A DNA stretch of 64,000 nt, taken from assembly GCF_022846255.1 (NCBI RefSeq), contig NZ_AP025682.1, one strand, 5' to 3'. This document shows positions 52,687-55,600 of this stretch, one piece after another. Positions within the stretch are counted from its first letter, which is position 1. Each line of letters begins with the position of its first letter. A model generated the notes under the pieces. It was not told where the DNA came from, ran no database searches, and saw only the letters and a list, made by a program, of their open reading frames with translations. The position numbers and the translations under genes were made by a program. The stretch is from Escherichia coli. GTDB taxonomy: Bacteria > Pseudomonadota > Gammaproteobacteria > Enterobacterales > Enterobacteriaceae.

Positions 52687-55600
52687 ATGAATATGCGGAT
52701 TATCTCTCTACGCAAGGAGTATTTATCTTTACTCCCGTCAATGATTGCATCTCTTTTCTCTGCTAACGGTGCCGCAGCGGTCATTGATTCATGCCAGGGA
52801 TATGATATCAAAGCGAGCTGTCAGGCCAGCAGGCAAAGCCTTTCGGGTAATATACAGGACTGGAGCATCGCGGATGGACAATGGTTGATTTTTTCGGGTA
52901 TGGTCAATAATACCAGCGGTGGCGCAGTATTTTTGCAGCACAGTGCTGAATTTACGATATCACCACAAAATGAAACAGGGATGACCCTGTTTGCTGATAA
53001 CTCGGTTAGTGGCGAATATAATAATGGTGGGGCTATCTTTGCTAAAGAAAACTCAACGATAAATCTTGCGAATGTTATTTTCGACAGTAATGTTGCAGGA
53101 GGCTATGGCGGAGCAATCTATTCTGCCGGTACCAATGATACCGGTGCCGCCGATTTACGTGTCACTAACGCCGTATTTCACAATAACATCGCTAATGACG
53201 GCAAAGGCGGTGCAATTTATACCATCAATAATGACGTCTATTTAAGTGATGATGCTTTTAATAATAATCAGGCATATACATCAACCAGCTATAGTGATGG
53301 GGACGGCGGTGCCATTGATGTTACGGATAATAGTACGGATAACACACATCTTTCAGGAAAAACGATAATTAATAATACCTCCTTTACCAATAACTATGCA
53401 GAAGGTTATGGCGGAGCAATTTATACCAGCAGCACCACATCCCCGTATCTTATTGATATTTCTGTTGATGATAATTATGACCAAAACAATGGTGTGATGA
53501 TTGATGAAAATAACAGCGCCTCGGGATATGACCATTCGGCGACGGCAGCGGCGGGGGGCTTTATGTATATCGGTCATAGTGTGGCTGAATTTAACATTGC
53601 CGCCGATAAAACGCTGGTAATAGGCAACACCAGCAACGATGGTGCGATTGATTCTCTTGCCGGAACGGGAGTCATCGTGAAAGAGGGAGCGGGAGAGTTA
53701 GTCCTCAATGCCGACAATAATGCGTTTACCGGCGAGATGAGTATCCAGAATGGCGAGGTGACGCTGGGGCGCAGCGATGAGTTAATGAATGTCGGCGACA
53801 CGCACTGTCAGAGCGATCCGCAGGATTGCTTTGGTCTGATGGTCGGCAGCACTGTTCATTCTGAGTATCAGGCAGAACTGAATGTTGGCAATACACAACA
53901 AACGTTTGTGCACTCATTAACCGGTTTTGCTAATGGCATTTTGAATATCGACGCAGGCGGCAATGTTACCGTAAACCAGGGCGGTTTTTCCGGCTCGATT
54001 CAGGGTGAAGGACAGTTGACGGTAGCGCAAGATGGCAGCTATCTCCTGACAGGGGCGCAGTCGATGGCATTAACCGGCGATATTGTGGTGGAAGATAACG
54101 CCGTATTGTCGCTAGCGGGGAATCAGGCCGATTTACGGGCAATGCAGAGCGATCCGCAATCGATCGTGCTAAATGGCGGAGTATTGGATCTCTCTGATTT
54201 CACCACCTGGGATGGCGATAGCTCATACAATGACGGTCTGCAAATCAGCGGCAGCGGGGGGACAGTGATTGGCAGTAATGATGTCGTTGATATCAGCAGT
54301 GGCGATGATTTACATATTGGCGGCAGTGATGCCAGCCAGAATGGCGTTTATGTCGTCATTAATGCGGGGGATCAGCGCGTAACGCTGGCGAATAACAACG
54401 GTTATCTCGGTAATACGCAAATCGCCTCCGGTACGCTTGAAGTCAGCGATAATTCGCAATTGGGGGACACAAGTTACAACCGTTCAGTGATCTTCACAGA
54501 TCCCCAACAACACAGTGAAATGGATGTGACGACTGATGTTGACACTCGCTCGGCTACAACAGGTCAGGGCAGGAATATTGAAATGCGCGCTGATGGCGAA
54601 ATACACGTTGAGGATGGCGTAGATACGCAATGGGGCGGATTGATGGCGGATAGTACCGGGCAACAACTGGATAGCGTAAGCACGTTGACTAAAAGTGGCG
54701 GCGGTACGCTGGAGTTGACCGCCAGCGGCACTGCGACGTCTGCGGTACGTGTGGAGGACGGAACGCTAAAAGGTGAAGCGGAGAATATTATTCCTTATGT
54801 TTCTTCACTGTGGGTGGGGGAAGACGGTGTTTTTGAAACCGGGCAAAATCAGGATATTCGCTCAATCGATGCCACCTCTGGCGGCGATATCGACATAACC
54901 GATGGTACTGTGTTGCGATTGACGCAGCAGGATACGAACCAGGTGCTGGATGCCTCGCTGTTTAGCGGCGACGGTACGCTGGTGAATGCCACCGATGGCG
55001 TGACGCTGGCAGGTGAGCTTAATACCAACCTTGAAACTGACAGCCTGACTTATCTTTCCGACGTGACGGTCAATGGTGATCTAACTAATACTTCCGGTGC
55101 TGTCAGTCTGCAAAATGGCGTCGCTGGCGACACGCTCACGGTAAACGGTGATTACATCGGTGGCGGTACGTTGTTTCTCGACAGCGAATTAAACGGCGAT
55201 GACTCGGCAAGCGACCAACTGGTGTTGAACGGCAATACCTCGGGTAACACGACCGTGGTGGTTAACCCCATTACTGGCATTGGTGAACCGACATCTACAG
55301 GTATTAAAGTGGTTGATTTCGCAGCTGATCCCGCGCAGTTTCAAAACAATGCGCAGTTCAGTCTGGCAGGAAGCGGCTACGTCAATATGGGGGCGTATGA
55401 CTACACGCTGGTGGAAGATAACAACGACTGGTATCTGCGATCACAAGAAGTCAATCCGACGCCGCCGCCCGATCCAGACCCGACTCCAGATCCTGATCCC
55501 ACGCCGGATCCCGACCCAACCCCCGACCCAACCCCCGACCCGGAACCTACGCCTGCCTACCAGCCGGTGTTGAATGCCAAAGTTGGTGGATATTTTAATA

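Follow-up and report, generated by a model that had tools for sequence, protein, structure and literature searches.

TibA, a self-associating autotransporter of ETEC, has a proline-rich domain at residues 627-677 (PMC3835316), and the proline-rich repeats R1 and R2 of Bordetella pertactin have been reported to change slowly in copy number, both from allele to allele and from species to species (PMC8931430). Among solved structures, the AIDA-I transport unit (4MEE) is the closest to the protein described here, and its autochaperone (beta1), pore helix and 12-strand barrel align with YfaL. Polyproline-II spacers are known in TonB, as (EP)n(KP)n, in trypanosome procyclin, as (EP)n, and in the PT linkers of cellulases. 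Sequences in which proline alternates with Asp, Thr or Glu are expected to adopt a polyproline-II-like form, a rigid and extended rod that rises approximately 3.1 Å per residue. Contingency loci, such as the opa genes of Neisseria and the tetranucleotide repeats of Haemophilus, are characterized by many perfect repeat copies, by shifts of reading frame or promoter spacing and by variation within clones.

In this study, a proline-rich tract in the Escherichia coli adhesin YfaL (EhaC) was analyzed from a window of 64,000 nucleotides, the window being the whole stretch of DNA under analysis, and the tract was compared with these systems. Our reading, to which we give a probability of roughly 80%, is that the tract is the proline-rich spacer of YfaL/EhaC and that its length differences are the ordinary polymorphism of a tolerant linker, not those of a contingency locus. 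The tract is a known kind of feature in a known gene, and the census of its lengths is a routine extension. A search of the literature for reports linking yfaL with a proline-rich tract found none, and the length census presented here may be unpublished.

The yfaL gene and the position of the tract

The following features of the window are referred to below:

52687..56463, + strand: yfaL/ehaC coding sequence, AIDA-I-type type Va autotransporter adhesin (ORF, translation, NF007285)
55078..55440, + strand: autochaperone/pertactin-like junction domain, aa 798-918, ending in the conserved WYLRSQE (Pfam)
55450..55557, + strand: variable segment flanked by the invariant motifs WYLRSQE and YQPVLNAK, 36 aa in this strain, to which all length differences of 15 E. 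coli genome alleles and 47 metagenome alleles map
55456-55557, + strand: proline-rich core PTPPPDPDPT...PEPTPA, aa 924-957, inside the variable segment (frame-1 translation)
55510..55541, + strand: perfect 12-bp tandem repeat CCCGACCCAACC (PDPT), 2.7 copies (Tandem Repeats Finder, 100% matches)
55576..55620, + strand: predicted alpha-helix, aa 964-978, threading or plugging the barrel pore (model residues 185-199, 4MEE)
55675..56394, + strand: outer-membrane beta-barrel translocator, aa 997-1236 by Pfam (PF03797, TIGR01414, 4MEE, model)

The gene had been named yfaL in a preliminary description of this locus, and that name agrees with both lines of evidence obtained here. The NCBIfam equivalog NF007285 ("AIDA-I family autotransporter adhesin YfaL/EhaC") matched the protein at 2703.9 bits against a cutoff of 1459, spanning protein residues 3-1258 and profile positions 1-1250, and yfaL was annotated at the match of a 701-bp segment around the tract in 5,419 of 5,426 complete E. 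coli genomes. The ORF that opens at 52687 encodes 1258 aa, and the RefSeq start of the orthologues corresponds to 52693 (1256 aa). Because NF007285 aligns from residue 3 and the RefSeq orthologues have a 3771-nt CDS, as annotated in MS1170 and A20, which both carry a 36-aa tract, 52693 is taken to be the conventional yfaL start. The N-terminus, MRIISLRKEYLSLLPSMIASLFSANGAAA, looks like a Sec signal peptide. Moreover, nrdA and ubiG-gyrA flank yfaL in the window, which is its typical position in E. coli; the ORFs run in the order 761 aa (-), 1258 aa (+), 256 aa (-) and 875 aa (+), and the order nrdA, yfaL, ubiG-gyrA is also annotated in FHI_NMBU_03, MS1170 and A20. The complete YfaL protein of the window had no exact match in a collection of 15 billion proteins, in which the tract itself was represented.

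The peptide at aa 924-957, PTPPPDPDPTPDPDPTPDPDPTPDPTPDPEPTPA, lies in reading frame 1 of the ORF, and half of its residues (17 of 34) are proline. This peptide had been quoted correctly beforehand, and it is encoded exactly by 55456-55557; the interval given with it, 55456-55551, starts at the right position (codon 924 is at 55456) but ends 6 nt, or two codons, too early. The short tandem DNA units of that description were also recovered, in the form of a degenerate CCN-GAY/ACN repeat with arrays of period 12 and period 18, the degenerate period-18 array comprising 3.9 copies at 69% matches (Tandem Repeats Finder). The degenerate PDPTPD pattern CCNGAYCCNACNCCNGAYCC occurred four times in the window, every time within the tract, with an expected count of 0.00 from 100 dinucleotide-preserving shuffles of the same 64 kb. 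In addition, the GC content at the tract peaks at 0.69, with a strong skew of C over G. Two further candidates were rejected. Genes in alternative frames or on the opposite strand over the tract were represented only by low-complexity ORFs of 33-97 aa, which were judged spurious, and the matches of the tract to other families were compositional, with procyclin/PARP (PF05887) scoring 22.9 bits at aa 920-958 against a cutoff of 100 and SslE and internalin K likewise falling below cutoff.

The domains on both sides of the tract were recognized. Upstream, Pfam detected AC_1 (PF18883) at aa 798-908 (3.9e-18) and Pertactin (PF03212) at aa 816-918 (1e-08), and the IcsA autochaperone structures 3ML3 and 5KE1 matched the same junction region. 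Downstream, the barrel was matched by PF03797 (1.7e-31), TIGR01414 (9e-109) and 4MEE (E=4.4e-38). The alignment to 4MEE covered YfaL aa 812-920 and aa 965-1252, which correspond to residues 29-137 of the AIDA-I chain and to chain residue 149 onward, respectively. An AlphaFold2 model of aa 780-1258, built from a 16-sequence alignment (mean pLDDT 82.8, pTM 0.79), placed beta strands up to model residue 139, a helix at 185-199 (pLDDT approximately 90) and then twelve long barrel strands, which extend to aa 1257. The tract, model residues 144-177, was modelled as coil and contained the sole segments of the model with a pLDDT below 50, a value which means that no fold is predicted and which is not proof of a polyproline-II rod; the tract thus has no predicted secondary structure. 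A 12-strand barrel, a pore helix and a junction domain at the C-terminus of the passenger, three features of a type Va autotransporter, were all found, and a proline-rich, low-complexity segment separates the junction domain from the pore helix that follows it, in a TibA-like arrangement. The earlier designation of the tract as a passenger-to-barrel linker is upheld by its place between AC_1/Pertactin and the barrel, by its being an insertion relative to 4MEE and by the low-confidence coil. More precisely, the domain matches taken together with the model show it to be a spacer that joins the junction (autochaperone) domain to the pore helix.

Length classes and the 36-residue allele

In E. coli, the segment from WYLRSQE to YQPVLNAK was found in six discrete lengths, namely 20, 24, 26, 32, 34 and 36 aa, and every length difference was a multiple of 6 bp, with the reading frame kept. 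The classes were sampled from the 5,419 genomes at evenly spaced ranks of the matches (40 rows when the window served as the query, 60 when the K-12 allele did). The 100 sampled rows comprised 67 with 32 aa, 21 with 26 aa, six with 34 aa, three with 24 aa and one with 20 aa, corresponding to alignment spans of 687, 669, 693, 663 and 651 bp, respectively, and the class of rows that were not fetched was read from the alignment span alone. One further strain of the sample carried a large deletion, and the 699-bp span of the window itself was absent from the sample. In metagenome contigs, an exact-pattern scan with a detectable range of 22-42 aa identified 47 loci, of which 19 had 26 aa, 16 had 32 aa, seven had 24 aa and five had 34 aa; within this range, these 47 loci showed no intermediate lengths and none longer than 34 aa. 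The frequencies given here are those of samples (100 rows and 47 contigs). Furthermore, approximately 474 additional genomes aligned across a 6-bp gap with a 105-bp query, as would be expected of the 34-aa class.

Of the 16 alleles that were retrieved for translation, 15 had all their length differences between WYLRSQE and YQPVLNAK. The sixteenth, VTB97022v, has a 168-bp in-frame deletion that starts upstream of WYLRSQE. According to the annotated CDS lengths, a single further length polymorphism (6 bp) is present in the remaining 3.07 kb of yfaL, and the tract is therefore the indel hotspot of the gene. A comparison of repeat length across yfaL alleles, which had been proposed beforehand as a check, thus gave six classes and not an identical length. 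The phrase "length-variable linker" is likewise justified by a range of 20-36 aa among strains and by two allele differences that are exact gains or losses of a unit.

The tract DNA is built on a degenerate repeat of 6, 12 or 18 bp (CCN-GAY-CCN-ACN...), and the alleles show that whole units of it were gained or lost on occasion, which accounts for the discrete lengths. For example, an 18-bp unit, CCTGACCCAACACCCGAT, is present in two exact copies in the 26-aa allele of JL05 and in one copy in the 20-aa allele of OkiPb01711. The 168-bp deletion of VTB97022v fuses a copy of CTGATCCCACGC in the autochaperone domain to a second copy in the tract. Changes of these kinds are what slippage during replication, or recombination at short direct repeats, would be expected to leave behind. 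The tract was also considered as a possible hotspot of laboratory evolution, and this idea was abandoned: yfaL was mutated in two ALE lines, but by SNVs outside the tract (supplement), the yfaL mutations of irradiation evolution were also elsewhere in the gene, and the laboratory changes were SNVs or frameshifts.

The class to which the window belongs, 36 aa, is both the longest and the rarest, and it was found in exactly seven of 5,426 complete genomes (MS1170, MS1266, MS 16-3, VTB97074v, N1420, A20 and A36) when a 105-bp query with the three-copy arrangement was used. An exact 12-bp tandem duplication of CCCGACCCAACC separates the window from the common 32-aa B2-type allele of strains 536, F11, NC101, FHI_NMBU_03 and ST131. 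The duplicated unit is either 55510-55521 or 55522-55533, and it appears as a 12-column gap against the FHI_NMBU_03 and ST131 alleles. An exact direct repeat of 20 bp at offset 12 was present only in the window and most of the 36-aa alleles, being shortened to 13 bp in A20 and A36. Later substitutions in the three-copy alleles were located at 55516 (A20 and A36) and at 55472 and 55482 (MS1170). Moreover, the window was identical to MS1170 over 51193-53692 and nearly identical downstream of 55312, with a divergent, recombinant patch at 54943-55311. This identity or near-identity on the whole gene implies that the duplication is shared by descent and is not recurrent, and by sequence comparison it is inherited with the allele family to which MS1170 and A20 belong. 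An independent recurrence (homoplasy) of the duplication had been considered, prompted by 701-bp flanks that were closest to two-copy B2 alleles, and was dropped in view of the MS1170-like whole gene and the recombinant patch at 54943-55311.

Tempo of length change and the probable role of the spacer

The indel events in the tract are shown, by comparison of the alleles, to be rare and old, with lengths fixed in allele lineages. When the genome and metagenome sequences were pooled, their 25 distinct DNA alleles had 43 columns polymorphic by substitution and approximately six independent indel events, the latter number being a parsimony guess, with some recurrence possible; the ratio of substitutions to indels was about 7 to 1. 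Several substitution-distinct alleles were found within single length classes. Since 43 substitution columns stand against six length classes, point changes accumulated several-fold faster than indels.

Two other explanations bear on the repeat as DNA. The first is that the tract is a hypermutable repeat of the contingency type, in which frequent slippage tunes the reach of the adhesin within a host or clone, as would be in keeping with the two exact unit gains or losses, with the 20-bp exact tandem repeats in most of the alleles that are already duplicated and with a concentration of indels in the tract that the other parts of yfaL do not show. However, the window has at most 2.7 perfect 12-bp copies in place of a long perfect run, and in most alleles exact direct repeats reach just 8-11 bp because synonymous codons are scrambled. 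No length variation was detected among the 60 alleles closest to the window, which all share one shorter length without the duplication, or among 21 sampled alleles with an identity to K-12 of 99% or more, from a group of 1,889 genomes, and this constancy among close relatives is a sampling test and not a full census. In addition, all differences are in-frame multiples of 6 bp, the units being multiples of 3, and therefore no ON/OFF phase switching of expression takes place; substitutions outnumber indels as given above, and the evolution experiments produced no indels in the tract. Frequent slippage is highly improbable on this evidence, and the earlier statement that such repeats are prone to slippage is retained only weakly, for the exact unit gains and losses, against the short exact repeats, the lineage-fixed lengths and the excess of substitutions. 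The other explanation holds that the extra 12 bp of this strain are an artefact of sequencing or assembly, the repeat being C-rich and difficult. Draft short-read assemblies do very often break in the tract, and dozens of partial YfaL proteins have ragged ends inside it or start just past it. Nevertheless, the 105-bp three-copy stretch recurred without a mismatch in five independent complete genomes and with a single mismatch in two more, the hosts of these seven strains (chickens, humans, a bat and a rodent) were spread over four continents, and the reading frame is intact, so that an artefact is exceedingly improbable.

With regard to function, every second residue of the tract is proline, and the tract would probably form a stiff, extended polyproline-II-like rod of approximately 6-11 nm, which would emerge from the mouth of the barrel and keep the folded passenger off the surface of the outer membrane. 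The rod would measure roughly 6 nm in the 20-aa class and roughly 11 nm with the 36 aa of the window, so the extra PDPT of this strain would add about 1.2 nm within a whole range of about 5 nm, which is small, and any variation of adhesin reach between strains, as suggested beforehand, would be correspondingly slight. The four extra residues, and length differences in general, are probably near neutral. Tracts of the type (PDPT/PEPT)n, 25-57 aa long, were found in the same slot in distant AIDA-type autotransporters of Citrobacter and metagenomes, between "NWYL(T/R)S" and the "RPE.G.YL.N" start of the helix (homologues P0065, P0090, P0095 and P0117). These tracts, the extra alleles and the contig breaks were collected from homologues of the C-terminal 479 aa, which were mostly fragments. 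The presence of tracts in the same slot in distant homologues points to a generic spacer role that is tolerant of length change.

Selection on the tract was also weighed. Previous work has placed yfaL among the genes with a positive-selection signal in E. coli (PMC9110714), and selection on the tract is thus possible. The tract might be an exposed region that is immunodominant or binds a ligand, with diversifying selection acting on its sequence and length, as has been proposed for pertactin R1/R2, the proline-rich repeats of which differ between alleles (PMC8931430); it would then do more than hold two domains apart. In line with this proposal, 11 protein alleles were found in the 47 metagenome contigs, some of the differences being D/E/A/G/I/V replacements towards the C-terminus of the tract, and a mosaic or recombinant patch lies directly upstream. 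The selected yfaL sites, however, are not mapped to the tract, no recognisable binding motif was found in it, and the tracts in the same slot in distant AIDA-type autotransporters fit a generic spacer; diversifying selection is accordingly unlikely. The lengths might also be adaptive and matched per lineage to the thickness of the O-antigen or capsule, so that the passenger clears the polysaccharide. This idea is very unlikely and can be entertained because the length classes are lineage-linked; if it were true, a thicker surface coat would be expected in the lineage that has the rare 36-aa allele. The reading of the tract as a spacer with an ordinary length polymorphism is preferred to all of these.

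The biological weight of the tract is small, and no long-standing question is opened by it. It has practical uses as a stable, lineage-informative in-frame indel marker in a core-genome adhesin gene. Short-read assemblies also break at it recurrently, and alignments across it are ambiguous, an ambiguity which can inflate the reported signals of positive selection in yfaL. Furthermore, YfaL is in use as a surface-display scaffold, and the natural variants provide a guide for linker engineering, since they tolerate 20-36 aa and one of them tolerates a 56-aa deletion into the autochaperone domain.

Comparison with known systems

The YfaL tract has in common with contingency loci that tandem DNA repeats lie in the gene of a surface protein and are gained or lost by units. 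It is unlike them in having no more than 2.7 perfect copies, in-frame changes only and lineage-fixed lengths. The spacers of TonB, procyclin and cellulases share with it the alternation of proline with another residue, the acidic or Thr residues, the tolerance of length and the expected geometry of a rigid, extended, protease-resistant rod; this likeness is one of composition only, without homology. In the AIDA-I transport unit, the bridge corresponding to the tract region has approximately 11 residues, whereas that of YfaL has 44, of which 34 belong to the proline-rich tract, and the tract is therefore taken to be an insertion specific to a subset of the AIDA-I family.

Pertactin is built with GGxxP and PQP repeat units, unlike those of YfaL, and is cleaved from its barrel. 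Both proteins carry proline-rich tandem repeats in a classical autotransporter passenger, and the YfaL segment directly upstream of the tract matches Pfam Pertactin. The R1 and R2 repeats are loops of the beta-helix passenger (PMC8931430), whereas the YfaL tract is a connector to the pore helix. The proline-rich domain of TibA, likewise a protein of the AIDA-I type, occupies the same architectural slot as the YfaL tract and is comparable in size, approximately 50 aa as compared with 20-36 aa, although the protein and the repeat sequence are different.

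Start codon and mosaic structure of yfaL

Two in-frame ATG codons were found at 52687-52695 (MNMRIIS...) at the beginning of yfaL, which encodes an AIDA-I-type autotransporter adhesin. The maximal open reading frame from the first ATG encodes 1258 amino acids, and the second ATG (52693), which is the start in the family model and in the RefSeq orthologues, gives a protein of 1256 amino acids. The yfaL gene and its surroundings were compared with E. coli MS1170, one of seven complete genomes that carry a 36-residue proline-rich tract of the window's type between the autochaperone domain and the beta-barrel, and the following two regions were distinguished:

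54943-55311: mosaic patch in the autochaperone-domain region of yfaL, directly 5' of the tract
57472-63472: gyrA, yfaA, yfaT and the start of an alpha-2-macroglobulin-family gene

Sequence comparison with MS1170 revealed identity over 51193-53692 and near identity after 55312, whereas 36 mismatches lay inside 54943-55442, the last of them at the 3' end of the patch. Part of the patch (55158-55311) was closer to the common B2-type allele of strains 536 and FHI_NMBU_03 than to MS1170. Judged from these alignments, the patch looks like a short recombination import within yfaL.

Downstream of yfaL, the initial 600 bp of the gyrA-containing region were identical to MS1170, and 183 mismatches followed across the next 5.4 kb. 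Among 5,425 complete E. coli genomes, the best match to the gyrA of the window reached 99.2% identity. Taken together, these two comparisons indicate that the local ancestry changes just 3' of yfaL, and that the source strain lacks a close relative among the complete genomes. The GyrA residues S83 and D87 were wild type.

Internal deletion and pseudogene annotation of yfaL in other strains

An in-frame deletion reaching into the tract was found in one of the genomes compared:

about 55220-55500 (equivalent position): deletion of 168 bp (56 amino acids) in E. coli VTB97022v (NZ_CP178670.1)

The deletion joined two copies of CTGATCCCACGC and removed the final strands of the autochaperone domain together with the first half of the tract. 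It sits on a K-12-type allele with flanks 99.8% identical, and the resulting 1194-residue yfaL is still annotated as an intact gene despite the loss. The metagenome protein P0014 also lacked part of this region, but through a deletion distinct from that of VTB97022v. In E. coli MS 16-3 (NZ_CP146667.1), which like MS1170 is one of the seven carriers of the 36-residue tract, the annotation gives yfaL as a pseudogene interrupted by an internal stop.

Anomalous YfaL proteins at the tract

P0025, an NCBI protein of 281 amino acids with 53 member sequences, begins with MGSGSGVGSGSGG, which is the tract translated from the reverse strand and is directly abutted by the barrel sequence DGQTLNLRVIGG. 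This fusion suggests that some genomes have been inverted at the tract, have undergone a hairpin-type rearrangement there or were misassembled. Moreover, the matches listed included several dozen incomplete YfaL proteins encoded in draft assemblies (P0031-P0119, cluster P0018 with 519 members and cluster P0019 with 303), the majority from Shigella sonnei and some from E. coli. Because these proteins ended raggedly within the tract or began just past it (equivalent to 55400-55560), the tract is a place where contigs of short-read assemblies break repeatedly. These breaks may come from a drop in coverage over the C-rich repeat or, in S. sonnei, from the insertion of an IS element.
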